Positions 28,029-58,883 of a stretch of DNA of 64,000 nucleotides are shown here, piece after piece. A program made the position numbers and the translations under genes. Source of the DNA: a virus (Duplodnaviria > Caudoviricetes). The notes beneath the pieces were generated by a model that saw only the letters and a program-made list of their open reading frames with translations, was not told where the DNA came from and ran no database searches. Location of the stretch: IMG/VR virus record IMGVR_UViG_2868569063_000004, positions 1 to 64,000 of that record, one strand, 5' to 3'. Position 1 is the first letter of the stretch; every line of letters starts with the position of its first letter.

Positions 28029-31000
28029 TCATCTAAGCTTTCTCCAGTCTCTAGTCATATTTTTGTTAATAATTGTAGAAACTTTGTTTGCGACATCTTG
28101 GATGTCTAAATCATTACTCATATTTGCTACATTAATGTTCACTTCGTTGTTGATAGTATAATCATTATTTGTTGCAGTAGGAGTAACCGGGTTAAACATA
28201 TTGGTAAAGTTATTCATTGCAGCAATAGAAGGTTTGAGCAGACGAGTAAATTCTTCGGTCATTACTGATTCGCCAACTTTTGCACCAATGAATCCATGAT
28301 CTCCATTACTAATAATAGCCTTACCTAAAAGAGTGCTCATGTCAGCAGGTATTAGTTTATTTATTATTCCACCAGTAGCAAAACCATATGATTTATACTT
28401 TTGAAGTATCTGATTTTTTAAAGCAGAACCCCATGAATCATATTTTTTAACACCTGGAGTACTAATTCCAAGAATATCTGCAAGCTGTTGCATTTCTTTT
28501 GGTCCGACTTTTTTACCTTTGGAATTGAAGTAACCTACTAACTGACTAACACCAGATGGAATATCAGTTGCTCCATCTGGACGATTAGGTAGAGAGCTTG
28601 TCCAATCCTTCAGATATGCCTTTTTGAATCCTTCAACTGCGACATCAGACTGGTAGCTATGATTAGCCCCATTTTGATATGCATATTGCATGGCGGCTCT
28701 TAAGTTATCTCCAGAAGTAACATCAATCCCTGCATTAGCTGCATAGGATTTAATTGCTTCGTAATGAGCGTTTGGCATTACATGAACGGTACAAGTAGCT
28801 TTAGCAAGACCACCACCGCCAATAGCAGTAATGATACATTTTCTTGTTTTAGACTCATCACGCGCCATTAAACCGTTCTTATTAAGACCTGAAGACACAC
28901 CACGAACTGTACCATCAGAAGAAACTTTCGCAATAGATTCATCAGAACTTTTCCATTCAATATCAGAGTGCTCCGGTTTGCTTGGTGACCATGTTGCTTT
29001 AAGCTGCTGTTTAATATGGTCATAAGTTAAATAAATATCAGTAGCGTTTAGTTTTAAACTGTATTTCTTGTTATTAACTGTACCTGGAGTTTCATTTCCA
29101 GCACCAGTGGAGTCTTTATTGCTATTAAATGTATTGTGAATACCATTCTCAGCACCGGTATATGTATTATTACCAGTTGTAGAACCACCTTGCCCATTGC
29201 TTGTTCCATATGGAAGAGTAACTTTCATATTAGAAATGGTTTCTAATGCTTTTATCTGTTGAATCAAACTTGTATTGAAATCAGCAGACTTACCTATCAT
29301 AGTATCAAATGTGCTAGACACCTTAACACCATACTGATCCATCACAGTATGTAAATGTTTATATGTGTTATCATAATTAGTGGTTACATTGGTAAGCATT
29401 CCACTAATAATAGCTTCCTGAAACGAAGAATTTTTCTTTACTGCATCAAGTGTATTATCTAATGCCTTATTTGCCTCATCTGAAAAATTCTCATAGCCGG
29501 TATTTTTCATATCGACTTCATGCTGATGCATTGTATCGGCCATATCGTCTTCTGCATCTGCAAGTTCCGCACGTAATTTCTCAAGACGAGCTTTGGCGGC
29601 AGCATTACTGGTTCCTTCAAGGGCAGCTATCTGGGATTTAAGAGTATTAATATCTTTAGACTTCTTTTTTAAAGTTTTGTCATAATCGTAATATTTCTCT
29701 TTAGCAGAAAGAGCGTCTTTACGCTTATCAATATTTTCCTGAAGTAAATCATTCTCTTTCTTAATTTGAGTCTCATACATATCAAGCATATTCTGTTTCA
29801 GTTCAGAAAGAGCAGTAGATTCTTGTTGAATACCATCAAGAAGTTGTTTGCTTTTCTCATTGTATTCGTCTAAGCTGTAACAACCATTTTTATATTGTTC
29901 TTCAAGCTTATTAAGACCTTCCCTATAGTTAGCAATCTTTTGTTTTGTCGCATCTATAGATTCTTGAGTTAATAAAATGTTAGTTAATCCATTTGTAGTA
30001 AATGAACCATCATCATTGTAAAAACTTTCAGCGTCACCGAGAAGTTTTTGCATAGTCTGATATTCAGTGATAACATTTGATAGTTTATCTTGTGCATCAT
30101 CAAATGGTTTCCAGCGAAGTTCCATGATTTCATTTTTCAGATTTTCTATATCACTGCCGATTTTTAAAATTTGTTCGTCAATCTGTGCTATAGAATTAAG
30201 ATATTTCTGGGCTTCTTCATTATTCATAGAAGAAAAATGAGTATCATAGTATTCGGCTTTTTCTGCACGAAGTTTTTGAAGTGCATTGATCTGTCTCGCA
30301 TTAGATTTAATGCGCTCCTGATAAATCTTTTCGTTAATCTGATATTCAGGATTATCATTTGCTTTTGCGTAATCAATTACTGCATCCTGCTTGGAACCTG
30401 CACGATCCCAGCGGTCAACAGCCCATTGTTTTATCTGTTCACGATTATCTTGTAAAGCCTGAACTAATTCAGCAGCTTCATTTTCTAACTTAACAGCCTC
30501 TGTCTGGAGACTATAAAGCTGTTTCTTCATCTTTTGGTATTCTGGATCGACAGTTTTATGTCCATTTACCTTAAGATATTCTTTCATCCTACCTTTATAT
30601 TCTTTTATTTCTTTATCAGTAAGACGTTTCTGTTCATTGGTATAATAGAGTTCCTTTTTCATGTATTTTTCATATTTAGAACCAGGTTTCTGATTATACC
30701 CTTGTGAGACTCTCAATTCCTGTTTAGCGTTGTAATAGTCAGCTTTATTCTCACGTTTACCTATGACGGTGTCATAAGCTTCAATAACACGTTCGACCTT
30801 TGCTTTAGCTAAATCTTTCTGTGACTTAGTGAGTTCACGAATCGCTTTGTCACAATCCAAGATTTTTTCATACCATTCCTGATATGCGTCAACACGTTTC
30901 TTATCATCTTCGGATAAACTTTCAATATTGATTGTACCATTCTGGACTTTCTTTTTCAGTTCGTCAGATAAACCAACAGCAGAAGCAACTTCATTTGCTT

Positions 31001-34000
31001 TAGCTACGTATTTTGCTCTGGAATCTTTTTGTGTCTGTAATTGTTTATTTAGATTTTTAAGTGCTTTATCATAATTCTTCTCAGAAGACTTATAATTACT
31101 ATAATCGCTTTCAGCGATATCTTGATACTTTTCAACGATTCTCTCTAAACGATCAAGAGCAGTTTCTATCCAGTCTTTAGCTTGAGTACTTGCTTTTTTA
31201 ATTGTATCATCTAATTCTGATGTACCGTCTGCATAGGCAGGAGCAAGGGTTACACCAGAAGCAGTGCCTTGTGCATATGCTCTAGCATGACCATGTGTAG
31301 CACCATGTTTTAATAAATCCTCTGTTTGAGTAGCTGAAAAGATGATGTCACCTTTTTTCAAATTCTCAATATGAGCACCACCAGGAATAAGTGACCATAC
31401 ACCATCACGCACTATGGATTCAGAATGACCATTGATACCTACTTCGTTAACAATGGCCTGTTCATCATGTTTAAGTGCTACATCACCTTTTGCATGAGCA
31501 GAAGAGAGAGGCCTCATATTAAGAACGTTATAAGCTGTTCCAGAAGCGTGGGCAACTGAAGTCATTGTACCCGAAGCAGTTGCTATGGCACCACCAGATG
31601 GAGCACCTATAATATGAGCATAATAATTAACTGTGCCAGAAATAGTAGGAGCTGAGGTAGGAAAATCTCCTTCATAATGAGCAACTCCGTATGCATCATC
31701 AGCCACATGTGGGAAAATGCCTTCATAATTTGCTATTCCTTCAGCATCTGGGACAGTAGGCGCTTCATCTACATGAGCTGTAGCTTTAACGGTTGTATCT
31801 GGTACAGTGGGAGCTTCTGTTACATTAGCTTTTGCATTTAAACTTACTTGTACTCCTTCTCCACCAGTAACACCAGTGATATTGGCCTTAGCGTTGACTT
31901 CAACAGCATCTCCAGAATAAGGCTCGATTTCAAGTTTACCTTTGACAGGAACTTCAGTATCAGCAGTAGCGGCAGAATCAACATCTACCCCTTTAATAGA
32001 AGCGTGTACTTCTACATTTGCTCCTTTAGAATTTGCTGTACTTTGAGCTTGCATAAGCTCATCAAATTCTTCTTTATTGTTTACTTCGCAATCAACAACT
32101 AATTTAGCTCCATTGGTAGGGGCAGATTCAATTAATTCGGTGGCCTTCTCAACATCCTCTTCACCATTAACTTCCATATCAATAGTAGCTGTAGTATCAG
32201 ATGGCATAGATTCAATTGTAGATTTTGCTTGTTCAAAACTACCTTCATTAGAAACATCACAGTTTAAAGTTACAGTGGATCCAGAAACGTTTTGTAAGTT
32301 TTCAATATCTGATTCTGCTTCACTGGTATCTGCTTCAACATCAACTTTTGCCGTTATGTCGTCATTTGACATTTTAAGCAATTGGTCTTCTGCAGTTTGT
32401 ATATTATCAGTATCTACTAATTTAACTTTAGAATCAGTCTGAGCTTGCTGTAAAGTTTCAAAAGCTGCATTAGCATCTTGAGTAGCTTGATCCAGAGTGT
32501 TATCCATGCCTTTTTGGTATAATTGGGTCTGGACATCCATTTCATTCTTAGCTTGCATAAAGTCTTGAGCAGCTTTTACAATACTAGAACTAGAATCGGC
32601 TTGAGATATATCAGAGGAGTTATATTCTACGTCTTGCTCATGCGAAATAGCTCCTGTATACACAGTCTGGAGTTCTTCGCCACCAGTAATCTCTGGATGG
32701 TATTTACCATCCCGATCTCTATACTTATCTACTTCTGTTCCTAAATCAGTTACTTGCTGATGAATAGAATCTAAATCAGTTGAATCAAAATCAAATTTAT
32801 AAGTTTTTCCTGTGAGATCAGTTAATTCATTTTGAGCTTCTTTCGCTTCGGTAACTACAGAATCCAGATTTTTTGTTGCATCAGTAGTATCCGTATTAAC
32901 CTTTAAAATACCTAAACCTTCAAGAGCAGTAAGAATCTGGTCTTTAGACAACTGAGTCTTATCTGCTAACTGTTGTATGGCATCTTCAGCCTGTTCCATA
33001 CCCTCAACATTATAAGCACCATCATTTAATTTGATGCCATCTAATTGTGTACGGTTATATTTAGAAAGGGTTTCAAATGACTTTTCAGTAGCGGCATCAT
33101 TTTCCTTATGTGCAGCAGTAAGAGCTTCTAATGAGTGTGTGTATTCAGCAACTCTGTCAGGATCATCACCTAATCCCATCTGTTCAGCAGTCTGTGGTTT
33201 CTCCCAAGACCCCTTAGTAGTTTCTTTAGAGGAATTACTACTTTTCTCAGAATCTTTTAATTTACCAGCTTCTTTTAAAGCCTCAATAACAGAACGAGCT
33301 TGGTCTTTAGTTAAACCGAGTTTTTCACATAAAGATTCAACAGCTTTTTCTGCATCACCTAATTCAGTGTCCCATTTACCATCATTGAAATCTATACCTT
33401 CTAACTGTTCAGAAGTATATTTTCCAAGAGTGTCTACTAAAGAAGTAACATCTGTGTTCTGTTCTTCATATGCTTTATTGATACCATCAAGAGCTGTAGT
33501 AACAGAAGCAGAATCTGTTATGATGCCATCCATTAATGAAGATACATCTGTTCCTAAAAGAGCTTCAACAGTTGTACCGGCAGAAGCAGCTAGCTCTTCT
33601 TGTTTAGCTTTTAATTGATTAATAGCTGCATTTCGCTGATCATTTGTCAATTGATCATTTTTTTGAACTCTTTTTATCTCTTCTTCGTAGGCTTGCGCTC
33701 CCATGGCAGATGAATTGAAATTATCAATAGCATTTTGAGCAGCATCTTCTGAATAAGACTCCATGTTATCATAGGTTTCTTTTAAATCCTGTTTATATTT
33801 ATTAACTTTATCCTCAGAAGCAGAAATAGCAGTAGTGTTAGTACTATCTGTATTTTTCAGTTCTTCGAGTCGTTTCTGTTCATCTGAAAGGGCAGAAGTA
33901 AGTTCTTGAGTTCTGTCTATACCTTCCTCTATAGATGATATAAAGTTATTATCAATACCATAATCACGAAGACGACCGAAGTTAGCACTCATGAATTCTT

Positions 34001-36740
34001 TGCTGATTCCCATTGATCGAGCGGCTTTACTCATATCATCTATGTCAAATGACCATCTTTTACTTGCATCATCATAAGATGCCATACCCTTAGATTTAAG
34101 ATCAGCTAAGAAATTATTAACACCTGTCTTATCTTCTGTGAGATATCTTACAGCTTTACCATAGTTCTCTGCAAAGTTTGCTCTATCATCTGAACCTGTA
34201 GGAGAAATAAGAGCGGCAAATGATTTAAAATCATCTGTACCTACAAGACCTTTATCATATGCATCTTTAGCATTCTTTAGTCCGGCGACAATGTTATTAT
34301 ATTTATCTCCGGCATTCTCCGTACTCTGGGCACGTTGCCACTGAGAATAATAGGAAAGAAGTTCCTGTTGCTGTTTCTTAGTTGCTTGCCATTCAGACTG
34401 AGATTGCATATAAGATAAATATTCGTTTCTAGCATCTTTTAATTTATCTTTTTCAGAATCATAGGCAGCTTTTTTATCATCTTCGTCTTCAGTTCCTTTA
34501 GCTTCTTTCCATGCTTTTTTTGCTTTATTTGTTACATCTGTTTGATCCTTAATAGCTTTGGTCTGTAACTTAATACCCTTTTCGAAATCTCCATCAGTGG
34601 CTTCAGCCTGATATTCCGTAAAGGTTTTCAAAGCATCTATGTTTAGTTTGATACCATCAGAAGTAGTGGTGAATAAATCATTAACATTTTGCTCAATGCC
34701 ACGAGGATCTTTCACATCTTTGAAAGCAGTAGAAAGGATCTTAACATTGTCTTTAGAAATTCCACCTGCAGAAGTAGTCTCTGTAAGAATAGTTCCCATA
34801 GAAGAAAGAGTAGACTTAGCAGTTGATACTTTCGTTTCCATTGAATCTAAAGAAACGGCTGCTTGATCACTCATATTTTTAGCTGCTTGTTTAGCCTTTT
34901 CGAATGCCGTATAAAATTCATCAATTGAACTTAAATCTTTATTATCAGTGATAACCTGTACAGCTATTTCAAGTTCATCTTGTGTAGCATTTTTTAGATC
35001 TTCTCTTACTTTTTCGGCATCGCCTTTAGTTTTGCTAGCCTTTGCTCCTTTCAGAGCATCTCTAACCCTATTAAGACTATCTTGATTCTCCCAAACAGTA
35101 TAAGCCTTATCATTGTCATCGTATTCAGTATGAGCAAAACCAAAAGCTTCGGCTAAAGTACCTTTAGTCCAGAAGTCGCTTTGAGAAATATCTGCTATAG
35201 ACTCAAGGACATCATCTCTTCTTGCAGCAAATTCTCTTACAGTTTCCTGGTCTTTAGGTTCCATTTCAAACAGTTGAGACCAAAGCTTTTGTTGATCTGG
35301 AGTAGCAGTAGCCATAGGGTTGACTACATTGTTACGGAGCCATGTGTCCATGTCTTTGCCGGATTCTTTAAAATTATTAAGCAATCTGGCATTGTCCGTA
35401 GAATTAAGCATATTATTCAACTGTGATTGAAATTCTGATGCTTTATCTTGATCGTCCCAGCTATCAAAAGAATCAATAGTACTTGCCATTGATTTGATAG
35501 AAGAAACCATTTCTCTTTTAGAGGCATCTATAGATTCTTGAGTATTAACTAAATTAGTATGAGCTTCTTGAAGTTCGCTATTATCTGAGTTTAAAACACT
35601 GGCAGCTTCACTATTAAGAAAATCTAACTGTTTACCATCAAATTCAAGAGTTATCTTTTGACCATCCGCAGATTGCTTATAACCTTTTATTGCTTTTCCA
35701 AATGTATTACCAAGTGCATCATATGCAGTTTGATCCAGTGTATAGGTGATGGTATCTTCTCCTTTTGTATGCTTTTTAAGCATGTCGGAAAATTTTTGTA
35801 CAGAATCAACTTTATATTTAGCTGCATCATATGCATTTTTGTATTCGTCTTGTTTGCCCTTATTCTCTCCTAAAGCAGTCTCATACCCTTTATACTGATC
35901 GCTAATATTTTTCTTTGTATCATAATAAGTAAGATTCCTCTGTAGCTTTAGATAATCATTGACCTGAGTGTTTAAATCCTCAGCATTAGTTCCTGCATTA
36001 AGAATAGCATTACCCTGAGAATCCCATGAACGTGTGAGACTAGGAGCAGCGGCAGCAATCTGATTACTCGTATCTAAGAAATCCTTATATTCATCATCTG
36101 TAAGACTAATATTTTTAATAGAATTACCGGATATTTTTACACCTTTGGACAATTCTGTGTATTTGGAAGTAAGTTCTCCAAGAGAAGCTTTCTGATCCTC
36201 ATAGGCTTTAGTTTGGGATTGAATGGATTCTTTTGCTTCTTGGCCTTTAGCAATTAAGTTCTCATTTTTATGAACGAAAGCGTCAATGCCTTTACCAAGC
36301 AATGAGAAAGCTCCTTGTACAAGCATTCCAACACCAGCAGAAATAAAAGCATTGCCAATCATTGAGAGACCAGCAGATGCCATACTTTTTAGACCATCGG
36401 ACCATTTGCCTTGTTTCTGTTGATCAGGTTTCTCCACCTCATTCTCTCTTTTAAAATCAGTGAGAGTCTTAGCATTAGTAGCTATTTGCTTGCCATAATC
36501 TTTGGCTCTTTGACTAGCATTCTTCGTTACTTCATTCGCTTTAGCCATACGTTGCTCGTTGTCTGTAATGGCCTGACCATTGTTATCAAGTTGCTTGTTA
36601 AGGTCTTTAAGAACTTCTAAATCATCTGAATATGCTTGATAATTTTTATTGGCTTCTGCATAGCCTTTTGCTATAGCAGCATTACGTTGAACTCTTCGTG
36701 ATTGTGGTAAAATTCCTCCATCTTCATTCTTGGCGAAAAC
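28029..36740 (-). CDS. Tape measure protein, exon 2 (2,903 aa, starts VFAKNEDGG)
   Basis: Very long helical ORF between tail genes and Dit with no credible start of its own; joins exon 1 in frame after intron removal. Confidence 0.88.
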   Translation of the reverse strand, partial: VFAKNEDGGILPQSRRVQRNAAIAKGYAEANKNYQAYSDDLEVLKDLNKQLDNNGQAITDNEQRMAKANEVTKNASQRAKDYGKQIATNAKTLTDFKRENEVEKPDQQKQGKWSDGLKSMASAGLSMIGNAFISAGVGMLVQGAFSLLGKGIDAFVHKNENLIAKGQEAKESIQSQTKAYEDQKASLGELTSKYTELSKGVKISGNSIKNISLTDDEYKDFLDTSNQIAAAAPSLTRSWDSQGNAILNAGTNAEDLNTQVNDYLKLQRNLTYYDTKKNISDQYKGYETALGENKGKQDEYKNAYDAAKYKVDSVQKFSDMLKKHTKGEDTITYTLDQTAYDALGNTFGKAIKGYKQSADGQKITLEFDGKQLDFLNSEAASVLNSDNSELQEAHTNLVNTQESIDASKREMVSSIKSMASTIDSFDSWDDQDKASEFQSQLNNMLNSTDNARLLNNFKESGKDMDTWLRNNVVNPMATATPDQQKLWSQLFEMEPKDQETVREFAARRDDVLESIADISQSDFWTKGTLAEAFGFAHTEYDDNDKAYTVWENQDSLNRVRDALKGAKASKTKGDAEKVREDLKNATQDELEIAVQVITDNKDLSSIDEFYTAFEKAKQAAKNMSDQAAVSLDSMETKVSTAKSTLSSMGTILTETTSAGGISKDNVKILSTAFKDVKDPRGIEQNVNDLFTTTSDGIKLNIDALKTFTEYQAEATDGDFEKGIKLQTKAIKDQTDVTNKAKKAWKEAKGTEDEDDKKAAYDSEKDKLKDARNEYLSYMQSQSEWQATKKQQQELLSYYSQWQRAQSTENAGDKYNNIVAGLKNAKDAYDKGLVGTDDFKSFAALISPTGSDDRANFAENYGKAVRYLTEDKTGVNNFLADLKSKGMASYDDASKRWSFDIDDMSKAARSMGISKEFMSANFGRLRDYGIDNNFISSIEEGIDRTQELTSALSDEQKRLEELKNTDSTNTTAISASEDKVNKYKQDLKETYDNMESYSEDAAQNAIDNFNSSAMGAQAYEEEIKRVQKNDQLTNDQRNAAINQLKAKQEELAASAGTTVEALLGTDVSSLMDGIITDSASVTTALDGINKAYEEQNTDVTSLVDTLGKYTSEQLEGIDFNDGKWDTELGDAEKAVESLCEKLGLTKDQARSVIEALKEAGKLKDSEKSSNSSKETTKGSWEKPQTAEQMGLGDDPDRVAEYTHSLEALTAAHKENDAATEKSFETLSKYNRTQLDGIKLNDGAYNVEGMEQAEDAIQQLADKTQLSKDQILTALEGLGILKVNTDTTDATKNLDSVVTEAKEAQNELTDLTGKTYKFDFDSTDLDSIHQQVTDLGTEVDKYRDRDGKYHPEITGGEELQTVYTGAISHEQDVEYNSSDISQADSSSSIVKAAQDFMQAKNEMDVQTQLYQKGMDNTLDQATQDANAAFETLQQAQTDSKVKLVDTDNIQTAEDQLLKMSNDDITAKVDVEADTSEAESDIENLQNVSGSTVTLNCDVSNEGSFEQAKSTIESMPSDTTATIDMEVNGEEDVEKATELIESAPTNGAKLVVDCEVNNKEEFDELMQAQSTANSKGANVEVHASIKGVDVDSAATADTEVPVKGKLEIEPYSGDAVEVNAKANITGVTGGEGVQVSLNAKANVTEAPTVPDTTVKATAHVDEAPTVPDAEGIANYEGIFPHVADDAYGVAHYEGDFPTSAPTISGTVNYYAHIIGAPSGGAIATASGTMTSVAHASGTAYNVLNMRPLSSAHAKGDVALKHDEQAIVNEVGINGHSESIVRDGVWSLIPGGAHIENLKKGDIIFSATQTEDLLKHGATHGHARAYAQGTASGVTLAPAYADGTSELDDTIKKASTQAKDWIETALDRLERIVEKYQDIAESDYSNYKSSEKNYDKALKNLNKQLQTQKDSRAKYVAKANEVASAVGLSDELKKKVQNGTINIESLSEDDKKRVDAYQEWYEKILDCDKAIRELTKSQKDLAKAKVERVIEAYDTVIGKRENKADYYNAKQELRVSQGYNQKPGSKYEKYMKKELYYTNEQKRLTDKEIKEYKGRMKEYLKVNGHKTVDPEYQKMKKQLYSLQTEAVKLENEAAELVQALQDNREQIKQWAVDRWDRAGSKQDAVIDYAKANDNPEYQINEKIYQERIKSNARQINALQKLRAEKAEYYDTHFSSMNNEEAQKYLNSIAQIDEQILKIGSDIENLKNEIMELRWKPFDDAQDKLSNVITEYQTMQKLLGDAESFYNDDGSFTTNGLTNILLTQESIDATKQKIANYREGLNKLEEQYKNGCYSLDEYNEKSKQLLDGIQQESTALSELKQNMLDMYETQIKKENDLLQENIDKRKDALSAKEKYYDYDKTLKKKSKDINTLKSQIAALEGTSNAAAKARLEKLRAELADAEDDMADTMHQHEVDMKNTGYENFSDEANKALDNTLDAVKKNSSFQEAIISGMLTNVTTNYDNTYKHLHTVMDQYGVKVSSTFDTMIGKSADFNTSLIQQIKALETISNMKVTLPYGTSNGQGGSTTGNNTYTGAENGIHNTFNSNKDSTGAGNETPGTVNNKKYSLKLNATDIYLTYDHIKQQLKATWSPSKPEHSDIEWKSSDESIAKVSSDGTVRGVSSGLNKNGLMARDESKTRKCIITAIGGGGLAKATCTVHVMPNAHYEAIKSYAANAGIDVTSGDNLRAAMQYAYQNGANHSYQSDVAVEGFKKAYLKDWTSSLPNRPDGATDIPSGVSQLVGYFNSKGKKVGPKEMQQLADILGISTPGVKKYDSWGSALKNQILQKYKSYGFATGGIINKLIPADMSTLLGKAIISNGDHGFIGAKVGESVMTEEFTRLLKPSIAAMNNFTNMFNPVTPTATNNDYTINNEVNINVANMSNDLDIQDVANKVSTIINKNMTRDWRKLR

Positions 36741-36802
36741 CAAACTGTGTGATATAATATAGCAAATCTTAATTACTATATATAATAAAAAGAAGGAACA
36801 AT

Positions 36803-37309
36803 ATGGAAGAATTATTATTTTGCAATAAATGTGGAAAGACCAGTACATCTTCTTCTTATAAAATAGGGGATAGATGTTATACCTGTGAAATTGGAACCTA
36901 TATAGGCACTGGTATTGATTGGTCTACAGCATATATGGAGTTATCAAAAGAATATGAGAAAACTCATGACGGTCATTGTCCCAGTCATTTGGAATCATCT
37001 GAGATATTTAGGCAAAAATATTTTTATGGAAAGTTAGACAATGAAGTAGATTACTCTGCCGTTAAAAAAAGAAAATATAGTGAATCTCCTGAAGGAATAG
37101 AAGAGCAAAACAGGATAACAGATAGATGGTATGCCAAACAGAATGCTCAGAAATTCTCTACTGGGCCTAAGTGTCCAATCTGCGGCAGTACAAACCTTAA
37201 GAAAATCACTGGAACAAGAAAAGCAATGAAGATAGGTCTGTTTGGTCTTTTTGGAGCTGGTGACCTTGGTAAGACTTATCAGTGCTGTAAGTGTGGAGCT
37301 AGATTTTAA
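36803..37309 (+). CDS. Intron cargo: zinc-ribbon protein with C-terminal CPxCGSTN...GLFG...CxxCG domain
   Basis: Four CxxC pairs; AGAAGGA RBS; TATAAT boxes at 36755 and 36781. Confidence 0.8.
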   Translation: MEELLFCNKCGKTSTSSSYKIGDRCYTCEIGTYIGTGIDWSTAYMELSKEYEKTHDGHCPSHLESSEIFRQKYFYGKLDNEVDYSAVKKRKYSESPEGIEEQNRITDRWYAKQNAQKFSTGPKCPICGSTNLKKITGTRKAMKIGLFGLFGAGDLGKTYQCCKCGARF

Positions 37310-38226
37310 TGAACATACCTGTAAATGCTAAAAGACAATTAGATAAAAGAGATATATATTGTATCTACCGGAGACCCAAAAAAGATAAAGATATATGCAC
37401 TTTACCTGATAGGCATTATTGTCAAATGTGTACGGCTAGACCACAGACAACATGTCGCTTAAAGGTTTCTCAGTATCGAAATGAACTAAATGCTCGCAAT
37501 AACAAAAAAGAATATCTTTTTGGTGTAGAAGTAGAACATGTTAGTAAAATTGATAAGAAGCTGAAACCAGCACAACATTCATTAAGCTCATTTACGGAAA
37601 GTTCTTCAAAAAATGCCAGTACAAGAACGTACAACTTGAATCATAATACTGTAGGCTCATATATTGATTATGGACCCAAATGGGATATTAAAAATTGGGC
37701 TGATTTTAAATATAAAGAAACCGTATATGTATTTAAGGGATTTTTGTATTGTGCAAAACATCATTCTGATTCATTGAGTCATGGACAAGTTATTATAAGA
37801 AATTTAAAAGGTACTAAAGAAAAGCATAGAGTAAATTTAATTTATTGTGCTAAGTGTAAAAAGTATTATATTGATGAAAGCCATTATAAAGATTTTATAA
37901 GACAGAAAGTATTGCTTGATTTTAGGATTAGGGCAAGCCATTCTCGTGGATATGGCTTTGGCGGATTCAAATCTGAATCTGAGTTACATCTTTATGGATA
38001 TAATGCACAAAGCTCTACACCTAAGTCGGTACGACAACAAGTTTTGTATGATGTTGTTTCCAATAGGTTAATGCGTGTAGAGGTTGTTATTTCACACTTA
38101 CAAGGACTCATTTCAATAAATGAATCAAGAAATGATAGAGCTACTGTTATCAAGCGCTACCGAGAAGATATGGATTTTTTATATGAGAAATTTCCAGGAG
38201 TAAGTATGGAATATAGAACCTTATAA
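37309..38226 (+). CDS. Intron cargo: hypothetical Cys-rich protein (305 aa)
   Basis: Translationally coupled (TAATG); CxxC motifs; C-terminal SELHLYGYN...RQQVL...VISHL helical region. Confidence 0.75.
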   Translation: MNIPVNAKRQLDKRDIYCIYRRPKKDKDICTLPDRHYCQMCTARPQTTCRLKVSQYRNELNARNNKKEYLFGVEVEHVSKIDKKLKPAQHSLSSFTESSSKNASTRTYNLNHNTVGSYIDYGPKWDIKNWADFKYKETVYVFKGFLYCAKHHSDSLSHGQVIIRNLKGTKEKHRVNLIYCAKCKKYYIDESHYKDFIRQKVLLDFRIRASHSRGYGFGGFKSESELHLYGYNAQSSTPKSVRQQVLYDVVSNRLMRVEVVISHLQGLISINESRNDRATVIKRYREDMDFLYEKFPGVSMEYRTL

Positions 38227-38863
38227 CAAGAGCTTTAAATGTAATACGTGCGGATATACATAATGATAGTTTATGAGCAATTTAATCATAATCTGCCGGA
38301 AGTGCGGTTACACATGGTGGCTAAGAAGATAATTATGACAAATAAAATACTCTATCATCAATAATATCACATAATTTTTGTGTTTCAATTTCATTTTTTA
38401 ATAGGAAACATTTTCTTTTATCAAATATAAAGTAAAAGATTGTTTTAACATACAAGACAAAATATTTAAATTTTCTTGTAATAAATCTTTTATTCATATA
38501 AAGAGATGTTTTTATGAAACGAATTTTGCATTTGGAGGAAATATTTTTCATGGATGAATTCTTTCGTAAAATATTAAATGATTTTGTAGATGAGTATAAT
38601 CAACAGAATATATAAAATTTAATGAACTCACGTTCTGGATATACAAAGTTGTCGAATATTGTTATTATACTACTAGGTATATTATGGTTATAGGTGCTGC
38701 ATTATAACTCGCTGCACGATAATATACTTGATCATTTCTTTTGATCATGCAGAAGTGTTGGCATACATTCTGTATTGTTGATGCGGACGAAGAATCTGCC
38801 CGTTCTGGGCAATACACTTCCCCAATAAAGAAATTTATAAGGGAAGGGGGTGAAAAGAAGAAT

Positions 38864-39049
38864 ATGAATACTGGAATAATAATATCTCTTGGTAGTCTTT
38901 TACTTGTTGTAATATTAGCTGGTCTATATTATAACTCGAAAAATCATACCGTTGATCAAATTTGCAACCATCCAGAATTATCTGATGAGAAAGTCAAATT
39001 TATCACCGGAATGATGAAAAGACAATACAAGAATAAAAAAGTTGACTAA
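38864..39049 (+). CDS. Intron cargo: small single-TM membrane protein (61 aa)
   Basis: MNTGIIISLGSLLLVVILAGLYY; GAAGGGGGTG RBS; terminator downstream. Start moved from the track's 38741. Confidence 0.7.
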   Translation: MNTGIIISLGSLLLVVILAGLYYNSKNHTVDQICNHPELSDEKVKFITGMMKRQYKNKKVD

Positions 39050-39119
39050 TCGCTAATAATGTTCTACTTTATCATTTAATTACTTCGTCATATGTATTTC
39101 TCTTTTTAAAATTTTTAAT

Positions 39120-39152
39120 AGAAGGAGAACTGTCACAGCAGTTCTCCTTTCT
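39120..39152. terminator. Strong hairpin between convergent cargo genes
   Basis: AAGGAGAACTG-tcacag-CAGTTCTCCTT, 11-bp perfect stem. Confidence 0.75.
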
Positions 39153-39224
39153 GTGCACCAACACTTTGCATAATACTATAGGAAAGTTAACAATCTCGAC
39201 TGCATTGAATACAACCGAAAAAGA

Positions 39225-39395
39225 TTATTCGTATAAGTCATATCCTGGGAGTTGATTAGCAATTTCTTTTGGGTAATTACTGATAAATTTTGTTCTGCCA
39301 ATATCACTGATTTCTATAAGTAAATCTGTAATTTCGTTTGAGCTTAGATTTTGAATATATTCAGGAACTAATCTATCAAAAATGTTTTTATCCAT
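39225..39395 (-). CDS. Intron cargo: 56-aa hypothetical protein (MDKNIFDRLVPEYIQ...GYDLYE)
   Basis: Translated by hand (below the ORF-track cutoff); AAAGTAGGTG RBS. Confidence 0.55.
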   Translation of the reverse strand: MDKNIFDRLVPEYIQNLSSNEITDLLIEISDIGRTKFISNYPKEIANQLPGYDLYE

Positions 39396-39440
39396 TAAAT
39401 ACACCTACTTTCAAAACTATATTATGGAGGTTTAAAGATT

Positions 39441-39551
39441 ATGGAAATATTAGAATGTCCTCTTTACAAAGAGTGTAAAGAAGAGGAATGTCCGTACTTT
39501 GAAAATGAAGATTGTACGTATTATACTAAGAAAGAGCAGGAGACTGAATAG
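39441..39551 (+). CDS. Intron cargo: 36-aa acidic four-Cys miniprotein (MEILECPLYKECKEEECPYFENEDCTYYTKKEQETE)
   Basis: GGAGG RBS at 39426-39430; terminator overlaps the stop codon. Confidence 0.6.
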   Translation: MEILECPLYKECKEEECPYFENEDCTYYTKKEQETE

Positions 39552-39566
39552 TCTTTTGCTCTTTTG
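39531..39566 (+). terminator. Intrinsic terminator
   Basis: AAGAGCAGGAGACT-gaat-AGTCTTTTGCTCTT followed by TTT. Confidence 0.65.
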
Positions 39567-39659
39567 ATGAATTTTGTAAGTATGTTTTATAAGTATCACA
39601 AGTAATACCTCTTATAACAGGAGAATCAATTATCTGACTTTTCTCTTTGCTAATAAACA

Positions 39660-40124
39660 TTAGCTCCAATTTACTCCCCATGATGTTACCTCCTCGAAAG
39701 TTATTTCTGGGAATATTTTCTGAACAACAGAAAAAGTAGTTAGTTTGACTTTTGTTTCATTTGTTTCTTGAAAATAGTAATGCACTAATTCTTCAATAAA
39801 TGCGAATAGTTGCATGTGTTGATTGTTAGATGTAATTATCCGTTCCATGGAGTATACTAAAAAAGACATACATCTTCCATAAGTGGTTGCTTCATTTTCG
39901 GTGACAGAAAAACTGCCATCTTTTGTAAATATTAGACTTACAGGAAATAATTTAGTAGGATCAATATTTTTTTCATATAAATGTTTGCTTAAGGATTCTA
40001 ATCCTTTAGTAAACAAATTGGCCAGTTCCTTTGACATTTCATAAGTTGCATTCATAAATAAGCATCCGTCAAAATATGGCGGAGCAATTGGTGCATAAGT
40101 TCTGATAGAATTATTTATTATCAT
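39660..40124 (-). CDS. Intron cargo: possible ImmA/IrrE-like zincin metallopeptidase-fold protein
   Basis: AGGAGG RBS; QLFAFIEELVHYYF resembles the (H/E)ExxH motif. Confidence 0.5.
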   Translation of the reverse strand: MIINNSIRTYAPIAPPYFDGCLFMNATYEMSKELANLFTKGLESLSKHLYEKNIDPTKLFPVSLIFTKDGSFSVTENEATTYGRCMSFLVYSMERIITSNNQHMQLFAFIEELVHYYFQETNETKVKLTTFSVVQKIFPEITFEEVTSWGVNWS

Positions 40125-40586
40125 AGTTTTACCCTCCTATGTGAAATATAGCATAGAAGAATAATAAAGTAAAGATTTGTGCTTACATCACCTTTGCACA
40201 TAAGGTAAGATTGCTCACAAGAATAAGATGTATTTACCCTTTAATTTATTCGGCGTAAGCTGCCTAACAGTCCTGACTATTCCTTCTTGATCCGGAGACC
40301 AAGTTCCCATTATAGTCGATGAACGTTCTTCTCTATAAAATAAAGAAGCTTCGCTGCAGACCACCCATATATATACATTGTTACTATATCTATTACATTA
40401 CTGTAGTAGGGGAGTAGTATATACTTCGGTTCACCCTGAATGCCAAATTAAAAGCATTTCTCTATTCCTTCGAATAAAGACAGTTTCGGTTGTTTGCTTA
40501 GTAACCCCTTTCTCATATGAGATCGTTCCGTGTCACCACCAGGTTACATGGGGCGTTTTCTAAAGGACCAACTGATAATTTGTCCC

Positions 40587-43118
40587 ACCCCAGTTCATAG
40601 CATGGCTAACAAGCATACCGCCGACTCCGGCTAAGGATTTATTAAGTCCCAAACCATTTAAGAGCCCTACAGCGCCGTTGCCAACATCAAGCAATCCTTT
40701 AAAAGTATTAGTACTACCTTCTGATTGCCATAACTGTGACCAAGATTCTTTAATTTTAGTTGTTTTTGCTTCGATAGAATCAAGGTATGTATTAAGCTCG
40801 TTCTGAGCTGAATTTTGATAATTATTTGCGGAATCATTATAAACATCTGTAAGCAATTCAGGATGCTGCAATATGGATGCAAGAATATTACTTCTATTTT
40901 TTCCTGCCATCATTTCAAGCAGAGCAGCCTGTCTATTCTGACCATCTGCCAAATCTTGCTTACCAATATCATCCCAAACCTGAGAGATATCTTTTAAAAT
41001 ATCATAAGTATCTCTATAGTTTCCATTCATATCAAGAATAGAAACTCCAGCCTTACCGTTAACGGCAGTAAGAGATTTAATATTTGAATTAAGTTTAGAA
41101 GTGGTCTCTACAAGACCTTCTGTATCTTCACCCATAGAAGATAATTCTTCAGCAGAAGTGCCTCTAAGTCGTAATGCAATTGTTCTAAGACCAGCACCTA
41201 CCTTCGATGGATCCTGCACTACACTATTTGCTGCCGTAACAAGAGCAACTGACTTGTCAAAGTCGTTCCCCGCTGCTACCAATGCTGAACCTGAATCCTG
41301 TAAAGCAGTGGCAATTCCGTCTGTAGAAATTGCATAGTTGTTACCAACAAGATTCATTTTATCAACGAGATCCATAGAATCATCAACTTTTACGTCGTAT
41401 GCTTTCATCATGGAAATCATAGCGGTTGTTGCATCATCTATAGATCCGAATTCTGATACATTTTTTAAAATACCTGTATTTTTAGCTAAAGTCTGAGATT
41501 CATTTAAGCTATATCCAAGACGAGAAAAATCAGCAGCACTACTAGTAATCTGAGTGGTTGTACTACCAATGTCTTTGGCATCAGTTCTAGCCTGAGTAGT
41601 AAAGTCTCTATATTCTTGTTTTGTACCATCTGATGTTTTCTTAAGTTCAGTCATCGCTGAATCTAATTCTTTTATTGATTCGACACCGGATCTGACACCT
41701 GTTGTTAATGCTTGGAATCCAAAATTACTTACAAGATACTGGCTAAGACTACGGAACTTTTGTCCCATTTCAGAAATATAACTAGATAAAGGTTTTACAC
41801 TTTGAGTAACTTTAGTAAGAGATTGGTCAATATTACCTGGACCATTTTTATATGCTAATTGATATTTTTCAAATACACCAGACCCTCTATCAATAGTAGC
41901 ATACATTTTACCTTGTGCTGCATTAAACTCTGTTGTGTATTTGCTTCCTTTTGCCAGATCTGCTGACATTTGTTCCATCTTAAGACGGACCTTATCAGAT
42001 GCTGGATCTAAATCTGTACCAATATATTCTGAACGGCTATATTTATTTGGAATACGTGAGAAAAACTGATTAGTATTACCGAGATACCTAGCTTGACGAT
42101 TGGCTTCAGAGCGAAGAGCAGCAAAACGTACTTGCTCAGTGTCTCTTTCGTCTCCAGTAAGAGTCGCAAGACTATCACGAGATTTTTTTAATTGCTCATA
42201 TGTATCATTGAAAGATTTTAATCTTTCATCATAACCTTGTCCTAGAGTTTTATCTAATGGTTTACCATTGTTAGGATTATATACTTGAGCCATTTTATTG
42301 AATGTCTTCTGTTTCTCACCCAAATTAGTGATAACTTTGTCGTATTCTGAAGCACTCTGAGTCATTGCTTTGTATGCTTCTTGATTCTTAGCCTGTGCTC
42401 CTCGAATGTCAGATGCAGAAGTAACCCAATCAGAAGCAGTACCTTGATTTTGTATCTGTCTAGCCAGCTGAGAATTTCTATGTCCTATAGTTCTCTTTGA
42501 CTGTTTATAAGTACTTTCATCAATAATCCCACTTACATACTGTTCCTGTAGGGTTCCTATTGTCTTCATATTTCTCTTAATTTCAGCTTGAGCTTGTCTA
42601 AGAGTAATGCCTGTAGATCTTGCAGTATTAGAAGAACTAGTGGTTTCTCCAACAACTATTTTACCGTCTTTAGTTTTTATATTGTCTCCAACAGTAAGCT
42701 TAATAGAGCCCATGTTTTTAGCTGTAGATTTTATTTCATTAAGTTTGGCTAAAAGTCCATCAAGCTCCCCCATAATACCTTGATTTACGGAAAGTTTTAC
42801 TTCTCCTAGATCAAGCTTGTCCTGGTACCTTGACAGCTTACTGACTGTATTAGCCATAGATTTTAAAGCTTCTTCAGGATTTACCATCTGTTCTACAAGA
42901 TTAGATCCTTTAATAACAGGAGTATTTTTAGCGGCTTTGGCAGTTGCTTTACTTATTGTTTTTACCGCTGTCTGTGCATTTTTAGTTAACTGTTTAGTAT
43001 TACCTAATTCCACACCTAGTTTAATGTGCTTCTCTTTTAAAGAATTAATTCGTGTTTCTAATGCATTTAGCGCACTGTCTTCAACTTCTACACCAACGTT
43101 TATTATATAATCAGCCAT
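40587..43118 (-). CDS. Tape measure protein, exon 1 (844 codons, ends ...HAMNWG)
   Basis: TP901-type TMP core (ELDSAMTELKKT...ADFSRLGYS...DKMNLVGNNYAIS...GAGLRTIALRLRG). Confidence 0.9.
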
Positions 43119-58811: not shown

Positions 58812-58883
58812 CATCCGGTACGGGAATTGAACCCATGTTACTGCATTGAAAGCGCAGTGTCTTAACCGCTAGACTAACCGGAC
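58812..58883 (-). tRNA. tRNA-Glu(TTC)
   Basis: GTCCGGT/ACCGGAT acceptor; GTCTAGCGGTTAAGAC D arm; CTGCG-CTTTCAA-TGCAG. Confidence 0.85.

Follow-up and report, generated by a model that had tools for sequence, protein, structure and literature searches.

What separates the two halves of a giant phage tail gene? The question is raised by the tape measure protein (TMP) gene in positions 1-64,000 (the window analysed here) of the 122.9-kb phage record IMGVR_UViG_2868569063_000004, where an N-terminal part (43118-40587) and a C-terminal part (36740-28029) lie on the minus strand with a gap of 3,846 nt between them. An earlier reading of the same letters and their open reading frames (ORFs), hereafter the sequence-only reading, had proposed that the gap is a giant group I intron that is removed with exact in-frame joining of the exons. 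In the present analysis this proposal was supported together with its splice sites: we give a probability of about 0.88 to a functional 3,846-nt group I intron (40586-36741, minus strand) in the TMP gene of an SPbeta-like temperate phage. On comparative grounds, a group I intron is the only reading that would account jointly for the covariation of the guide, the terminal G, 43 compensated pairs in the fold, the switch in conservation at the 5' splice site, an exon 2 lacking a conserved start codon and the collinear homologues.

Exon 1 (40587-43118, minus strand) comprises 844 codons ((43118-40587+1)/3) and ends with AAC TGG GGT at 40587, its last six nucleotides being UGGGGU in the transcript. 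Unspliced, its frame runs through eight further codons to a TAG at 40562-40560, giving an ORF of 852 aa (43118-40560). The tape measure domain PF10145 was detected in this ORF (1.4e-18), and phrog_4211, a profile of long TMPs, was matched at 1.5e-64 over positions 172-922 of 2625, corresponding to the first third only. Exon 2 (28029-36740, minus strand) begins on a codon boundary with GUU UUC (V-F) at 36740, contains 2,903 codons and the stop, and also matches a Big_2 domain and phrog_167. The C-terminal ORF as called is longer (2,939 aa, 36848-28029), its first 36 codons being AT-rich filler antisense to another gene. Joined at the proposed sites, the exons would encode a product of 3,747 aa (844 + 2,903) with ...HAMNWG followed directly by VFAKNEDGG...; both the position of the splice sites on codon boundaries and this sum were confirmed.

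Alignment indicates that the two ORFs are the halves of one gene. The comparison with uninterrupted TMPs, proposed earlier as a check, was collinear across the junction: the C-terminal 200 aa of exon 1 and the N-terminal 300 aa of exon 2 were matched in one chain, with the order kept, by 36 uninterrupted TMPs (~2,100-4,200 aa), and the two exon matches abut within about 5 residues in the three uninterrupted TMPs that were checked (P0012, P0018 and P0021). Across alleles, exon 2 has neither a conserved start codon nor a conserved ribosome-binding site, and the open stretch upstream of it is 9-61 codons long. In the related loci L018 and L020 this stretch is without any start codon, and the starts available in the other alleles are non-homologous and without a Shine-Dalgarno sequence. 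Protein conservation starts precisely at V/I-F, the first codons 3' of the proposed 3' splice site. Gene callers annotate the TMP as two ORFs in every record seen, with the practical consequence that these TMPs are split into two proteins.

The splice sites are defined by pairings with an internal guide at 40549-40560 (minus strand), which consists of GAAAAC as the P10 strand and GCCCCA as the P1 strand and covaries with the last nucleotides of exon 1 and with the first of exon 2, in four combinations each. In the window, P1 is formed by GCCCCA with UGGGGU (6 bp, with U.G at the splice site), and P10 by GAAAAC with GUUUUC at 36740-36735 (6 Watson-Crick bp). The exon and guide sets of P1 are UGGGGU/GCCCCA (window), UUGGGU/GCCCAA (L080), CGGGGU/GCCCCG (L084) and GUGGGU/GCCCAC (L083 and L087); P1 is paired at 6/6 positions in all lineages, with the U.G invariant and positions -5 and -6 covarying. 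The guide and exon 2 sets of P10 are GAAAAC/GUUUUC (window), GAAAAC/GUUUUU (L003 type), GAAAAU/AUUUUC (L085) and GAAUAU/AUAUUC (L083 and L087), with compensatory changes and with 6/6 bp in seven of the eight lineages and 5/6 in L080. A single guide nucleotide (C or U) covaries with intron nucleotide 1 (G or A) and is later the partner of nucleotide 1 of exon 2, which matches the exchange from P1 to P10 because the exchange requires that shared guide nucleotide. The covariation of P1 and P10 across the aligned loci is the decisive evidence for the predicted intron.

At the other end, GGACUGU (40267-40273, minus strand), located 3' of P7, supplies with its GGA the 5' strand of P9.0 and also the 5' strand of a helix closing the cargo loop, while the intron 3' end (36741-36748, minus strand) supplies ACAGUUU (36748-36742; the 3' strand of P9/P9.0) and the terminal G36741. 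Every lineage whose intron 3' end is known has G as the final intron nucleotide, the 3 nt preceding it are paired with GGA in 6/8 lineages, and the ACUGU/ACAGU helix is kept in the window-type alleles. When the sequence statements of the sequence-only reading were rechecked, the coordinates of the exon ends, the guide, P1, P10, the GGACUGU/ACAGUUU pairing and the terminal G were all correct.

The same TMP was found at 85-100% identity in 20 IMG/VR contigs, all of which carry an intervening sequence with identical boundaries; their intervening sequences are 1,711-2,540 nt long and show 17 internal arrangements. A protein search returned a ladder of TMP N-parts of ~850 aa with a common end point and with identity down to 53%, and eight more distant metagenome contigs were fetched, each with the same split and with intervening sequences of 1,197-3,640 nt; these eight belong to SPbeta-like phages (YonB, YomW and YomU matches). 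Phage group I introns do not usually exceed about 1 kb and carry no more than a single endonuclease ORF or its remnant. Here the family ranges from 1,197 to 3,846 nt (1.2-3.85 kb) and the copy in the window is the largest seen, so the element was rightly described as an unusually large, multi-gene intron. The family is seen in many gut-type metagenome assemblies, and clustering at 90% identity places the TMP N-part with 1,665 member sequences. No near match was found in public phage records, where a distant search gave just core matches of 50-60 nt, and a DNA-pattern search for diverged cores returned the same relatives and one small intron (L077). Another cargo variant was obtained at the DNA level from run X1 (kind unknown, assembled contigs, part of the sequence), which contained no spliced joint and counts neither for nor against splicing. 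A search for RNA runs containing the stretch listed none, which is equally neutral. The end of one Logan contig (L086:7820-7840) is Nextera adapter (CTGTCTCTTATACACATCT), and its last bases are therefore not phage sequence.

The ribozyme part corresponds to intron nt 1-411 (40176-40586, minus strand), is found in every relative, and comprises P1 with an extension hairpin, P2, two P2.1-type hairpins, P4, P5, P6, P7, P8 and a three-helix P9 domain. A consensus structure was computed with RNAalifold from 12 diverse cores, independently of group I rules. Its 104 pairs recover P1, P2, P4 (CAGG/UCUG), P5, P6, P7, P8 and the three helices of the P9 domain, with 98% of the cells paired and with covariation in all of the P2, P6, P8 and P9 helices. 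Pairs changed on both sides numbered 43/104, compared with 14.5+/-2.7 in column shuffles (0/500) and 2-8 with slid partners. P6, P7 (GACUA/UAGUC) and P8 are present in the window; P7 is invariant, and P4, P5, P6 and P8 are backed by covariation. The catalytic core that characterizes group I introns (the P4-P6 domain, P7, P8, J6/7 and J8/7) was thus found, and the element was classified as a group I intron because all of the testable defining pairings are formed.

The Rfam group I model RF00028, which the sequence-only reading had named as a check, matched 40253-40432 (minus strand) in a 471-nt search with 17.1 bits, and when run alone over the 122.9-kb genome it pointed to exactly this place and strand with an expectation value (E) of 0.0034. 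The test is considered weakly positive and not decisive, because the score is below the threshold, yet the match is significant genome-wide. In the Rfam alignment the Q (UCUGCAGCGAAG), R (GUUCAUCGACUAUAA) and S (GAAGGAAUAGUC) elements fit well, P3 is left unpaired and P4/P5 are truncated. The P4 of this alignment (UGUA, intron 210-213) was rejected because most relatives carry a C at 210 that breaks it, and an earlier candidate (CUACAG at 181-186 with CUGCAG) was superseded by the covarying pairing of CAGG (intron 149-152) with UCUG (227-230) obtained by comparative folding. P3 covaries in L083 and L087 (UUGCC/GGCAA vs UCAUC/GGUGA, read by eye), and at the homologous site of the window no pairing is possible between CAACC and GGGAA; intron 174-178 with 279-283 is the best candidate in the window, 4-5 bp with one C/A mismatch (U-A in L081). 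P7 and the P3' strand are separated by only about 3 nt (GACUA-UAA-UGGGAA), so P7.1/P7.2 hairpins are absent. The earlier statement that the core is complete therefore stands for Q/R/S, P6, P7 and P8 and was too strong otherwise, since P3 lacks a confident assignment in the window and the P4 proposed by Rfam is contradicted by the relatives.

Close relatives (97-99% identity) were uninformative for comparing the core with synonymous sites, and distant loci were used instead. The core of L082 is 97.7% identical to that of the window, compared with 68.6% for the adjacent coding exon, and precisely at the 5' splice site the identity leaps from ~55% to 100%. In L080, L084 and L085 the core is about 80% identical and the exon about 60%. 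The structured conserved RNA stops at intron nt 411 (window 40176), and from there to ~10 nt before the 3' splice site the intron is modular.

A mechanism can be proposed from these elements. Late transcription would cover both exons and the intron between them, and the first 411 nt would fold as the ribozyme. The end of exon 1 would be bound by the guide GAAAAC-GCCCCA (P1, U.G marking the cleavage site); once the first step is complete, the guide would bind the start of exon 2 (P10), while the 3 nt preceding the terminal G would pair with the GGA past P7 (P9.0) and bring G36741 to the G-binding site. Ligation of the exons would produce a single 3,747-aa TMP. The 3.4 kb that follow the P9 domain, up to the last ~10 nt, are exchangeable cargo, located where IStrons carry their IS. 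We infer that the TMP message is spliced in this way and that tail assembly would need it.

The cargo measures 0.8-3.4 kb across the family and 3.4 kb in the window; the two strands together carry up to about 7 ORFs. The first sense ORF in the window (39660-40124, minus strand) encodes 154 aa behind a strong ribosome-binding site (GGAGGG), matches phrog_33355 (2.6e-8, function unknown) and belongs to a module variably present in relatives; a small sense ORF of 59 aa (39225-39404, minus strand) is conserved in many relatives. Between them lies a 16-bp hairpin (39530-39565) that is followed by a T-rich tail on the plus strand and is weak and without a T-run on the sense strand; judged by this layout, it is likely the terminator of the antisense cargo operon. 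No strong sense-strand terminator was found inside the cargo. On the plus strand, an ORF for a small membrane protein (38741-39049; 61-102 aa, depending on the start used) contains a hydrophobic segment and gave Pfam hints below threshold only. A 1.3-kb module (37311-38619), absent from L003-L021 and present in L082 and the run X1 contig, carries an antisense ORF of 305 aa (37309-38226, plus strand), which had no family match in Pfam, PHROGs, NCBIfam, PADLOC or, by sequence, the PDB; it may encode a novel nuclease.

The antisense gene adjoining exon 2 and the 3' splice site (36803-37309, plus strand) encodes a 168-aa double zinc-ribbon protein and makes up the antisense operon of the window together with the 305-aa and small membrane protein genes. 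It is present in every intron variant, always antisense, and by protein alignments it is the sole cargo gene common to all of them. Its structure model was a confident one (pLDDT 82.8) and matched no solved fold and no nuclease; the protein falls into an atlas cluster of 1,768 members, the atlas clusters for the cargo being all unnamed, and searches with it returned the same contigs and nothing further. The first ~740 nt of exon 2 and most of this gene (window 35998-37185, compared with L003, L005, L011, L012, L016 and L018) exist as two or three alleles, which are only about 67% identical in DNA and 52% in protein (exon 2). Both flanks are 93-99% identical, and the 3' splice junction therefore lies within a recombination block.

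Among the cargo ORFs of the window, no homing endonuclease (LAGLIDADG, GIY-YIG, HNH, His-Cys box or PD-(D/E)xK) was detected with Pfam, PHROGs, NCBIfam and PADLOC, and no TnpA, TnpB or other transposase with Pfam, PHROGs and NCBIfam. PADLOC gave no match for the window cargo, Pfam and NCBIfam gave none for the window ORFs, and nothing significant was returned from the PDB by sequence or fold. In relatives, the cargo includes a HEPN-domain protein of 183-198 aa (PF18736, 1.7e-16; L007:9923-10474, minus strand, and also L003, L011, L012 and L017), whose module is antisense and directly downstream of the zinc-ribbon gene. The HEPN-domain family is found among toxin and defence RNases, and the HEPN and zinc-ribbon proteins may form a toxin or defence pair. 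Another module in relatives contains a 225-aa ORF. The homologous intron of L087, a distant relative, carries in the sense orientation a full-length IS200/IS605-type gene for the RNA-guided nuclease TnpB (L087:9885-10928, plus strand; NF040570, 320 bits), which looks like one more inserted module.

A sigma-70-type promoter for the antisense cargo was predicted across the 3' junction (36730-36758, plus strand), with its -35 hexamer TTGGCG in exon 2, a 17-nt spacer across the junction and TG-n-TATAAT within the final 20 nt of the intron. It was the best-scoring site in the region, and the same layout was observed in 9/9 lineages examined (the window, L003, L012, L018, L020, L080, L083, L085 and L087): the -35 lies in codons 2-4 of exon 2, the spacer is 16-17 nt, TATAAT is perfect and the upstream TG is mostly present. 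This promoter would express the cargo genes, probably while the phage is a prophage. A triple role appears to fall to the first 12 nt of exon 2, as codons (x-F-...), as the P10 partner and as the -35 hexamer.

Several points weigh against the intron as described. Splicing was deduced from sequence comparison and not observed directly, and Rfam at its gathering thresholds reported no group I match in the window, nor any at E<=10 over 5.2 kb; the 17.1 bits of RF00028 are far below its gathering score of 50 bits. The window type has no convincing P3, the P3 of L083 and L087 having no counterpart there, and its P4 is just 4 bp. Splicing efficiency could suffer from the convergent promoter and from the 3.4 kb of cargo that separates the core from the 3' splice site. 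An insert-free close relative was not found among the 20 IMG/VR and eight distant contigs, and homing is not documented for this reason. The sub-threshold score and the doubtful P3, together with the two ORFs annotated in all records and the stop codon of the 852-aa ORF itself, would also be expected if the TMP were truly split in two by an island of accessory genes, with the ribozyme-like stretch as a non-splicing relic and the two polypeptides made separately before assembling. A relic, however, would not retain compensated P1 and P10 pairings in four combinations each, an invariant terminal G and 43 compensated pairs, nor would it remain better conserved than the coding exon, and the second polypeptide would have to be made from an exon 2 without a conserved start or ribosome-binding site, in two alleles without any start codon upstream. 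We therefore consider a truly split gene improbable.

It is just as improbable, in our estimate, that the intron is real but not excised as one 3.8-kb unit, either because transcription is broken within the cargo, by the hairpin or by collision with the antisense operon, and the halves are joined in trans, or because a protein cofactor of the phage or the host is needed. The conserved convergent promoter at the 3' junction, the hairpin at 39530-39565 within the cargo and the weak P3 and P4 of the window type are compatible with such a process. That hairpin has no T-run on the sense strand, though, and no conserved sense-strand promoter lies just upstream of the 3' tail, while the conserved 3' intron elements (the P9.0/P9 strand and the terminal G) amount to ~10 nt, too little for a stable association in trans; moreover, IStrons splice in cis across about 1.5 kb of cargo (PMC4227781). 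IStrons such as CdISt1 and BcISt1 combine an IA2-like ribozyme carrying P7.1/P7.2 with an IS200/IS605 or IS607 transposon as cargo (Tourasse et al. 2014, PMC4227781), and the layout of the window element is the same as theirs: the ribozyme comes first, long cargo without an endonuclease follows the P9 domain, and the 3' splice site is kilobases away. This likeness, and the TnpB in the cargo of one relative (L087, whose copy resembles an IStron), could suggest a group I ribozyme joined to an IS200/IS605 transposon and spreading by transposition. The cargo of the window has neither TnpA nor TnpB, however, its ribozyme lacks the P7.1/P7.2 hairpins common to IStron ribozymes (PMC4227781), and there is one copy per genome at a single conserved site; spread as an IStron is thus the least probable of the alternatives, and very improbable in itself. 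Whereas IStrons are defined transposons spread in multiple copies, here unrelated modules form a mosaic around a constant antisense zinc-ribbon gene. The window element is not filed as an IStron, because it fits neither the P7.1/P7.2 ribozyme nor the IS200/IS605/IS607 cargo.

With a group I intron excised in cis as the preferred reading, the element can be compared with other introns. Group I introns in TMP genes were described in prophages of the Bacillus cereus group (TMP-IVS1/2/3) by Tourasse and Kolsto in 2008 (PMC2504315). They share with the window intron the TMP host gene, temperate Bacillota phages, P1/P10 fitted to the insertion site and, in several cases, the lack of a functional homing endonuclease. 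They differ in having IA1/IA2 ribozymes, whereas the window intron is without P7.1/P7.2, belongs to a family of 1.2-3.85 kb, contains up to ~7 ORFs and has its own antisense promoter. The novelty of a TMP intron that the sequence-only reading implied was thus overstated, because such introns were described in 2008 (PMC2504315); what is new within group I introns is the large size, the mosaic multi-gene cargo on two strands and the antisense promoter spanning the junction. A second intervening sequence of ~1.96 kb was observed in TMP exon 1 of L019 (L019:8862-10821, also in L020 and L021), where it replaces window 41039-40856. It contains group I Q/R/S-like strings (UUGCAGCGAAG, GUUCAACGACUA and ACAUAGUCU), a P7.1/P7.2-sized insert and a 377-aa ORF that is helix-turn-helix/HNH-like, and it was not reported by Rfam at E<=1.

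The classical phage introns (T4 td, nrdB and nrdD/sunY; SPO1; SPbeta) are similar in their P1/P10 guide, terminal G, peripheral-loop ORF and a stop soon after the 5' splice site. In T4 nrdD/sunY a long ORF reportedly lies between the core and a remote 3' splice junction (Michel et al. 1992). Unlike the homing-endonuclease introns among these, the window cargo is multi-gene, partly antisense and modular, with no endonuclease family detected. The small intron L077 (IMG/VR contig 3300018425_000067) has no ORF and scores above the threshold of RF00028 (81.8 bits). It has the core strings CUGCAGCGAA, ACGUUCAxCGACUAUAAUGGGA and GGAAUAGUC in common with the window intron and likewise lacks P7.1/P7.2, but it looks compact, the flanking ORFs leaving no obvious room for cargo (splice sites unmapped); its P3/P4 are canonical and its P9 hairpin is local.

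Group I introns of phages are usually viewed as selfish elements of ~1 kb with one homing endonuclease, whereas the present family is a container for modular genes. The family makes no new category but is a widespread and unusually clear example of exchangeable genes sheltered by a ribozyme in an essential structural gene. A tentative extension, to which we give less than even odds, is that the family offers a protected site within an essential late gene to exchangeable cassettes with accessory or defence roles. Such a cassette, made up of the zinc-ribbon gene and variable modules such as those for HEPN RNase-like proteins or TnpB, would be transcribed from the promoter shared between exon 2 and the end of the intron; it would be expressed in the prophage, silenced in lytic growth by convergent late transcription and then spliced out of the TMP message. 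The Tha defence system of Staphylococcus aureus prophages (PMC11087260) was considered as an analogue of such antisense control and set aside as a conceptual parallel only, since it sits in the lysogeny module and not in an intron. If splicing is confirmed, ribozymes can let accessory genes reside cost-free in an essential structural gene, and the family would represent a second, transposon-independent route to an IStron-like layout. It would also offer a tractable case for how a ribozyme reaches a 3' splice site 3.4 kb away against a convergent promoter.

The same genome contains a second group I intron just past the end of the window (G000:C1:64877-65300, minus strand; RF00028, 43 bits; L001:1501-2450), which splits another large gene and carries a 241-aa ORF that is HNH-like by eye. 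It resembles the classical phage introns and counts in favour of the intron reading for the TMP gene. A tRNA gene was also detected in the window at 58812-58883 (minus strand, 63.6 bits).

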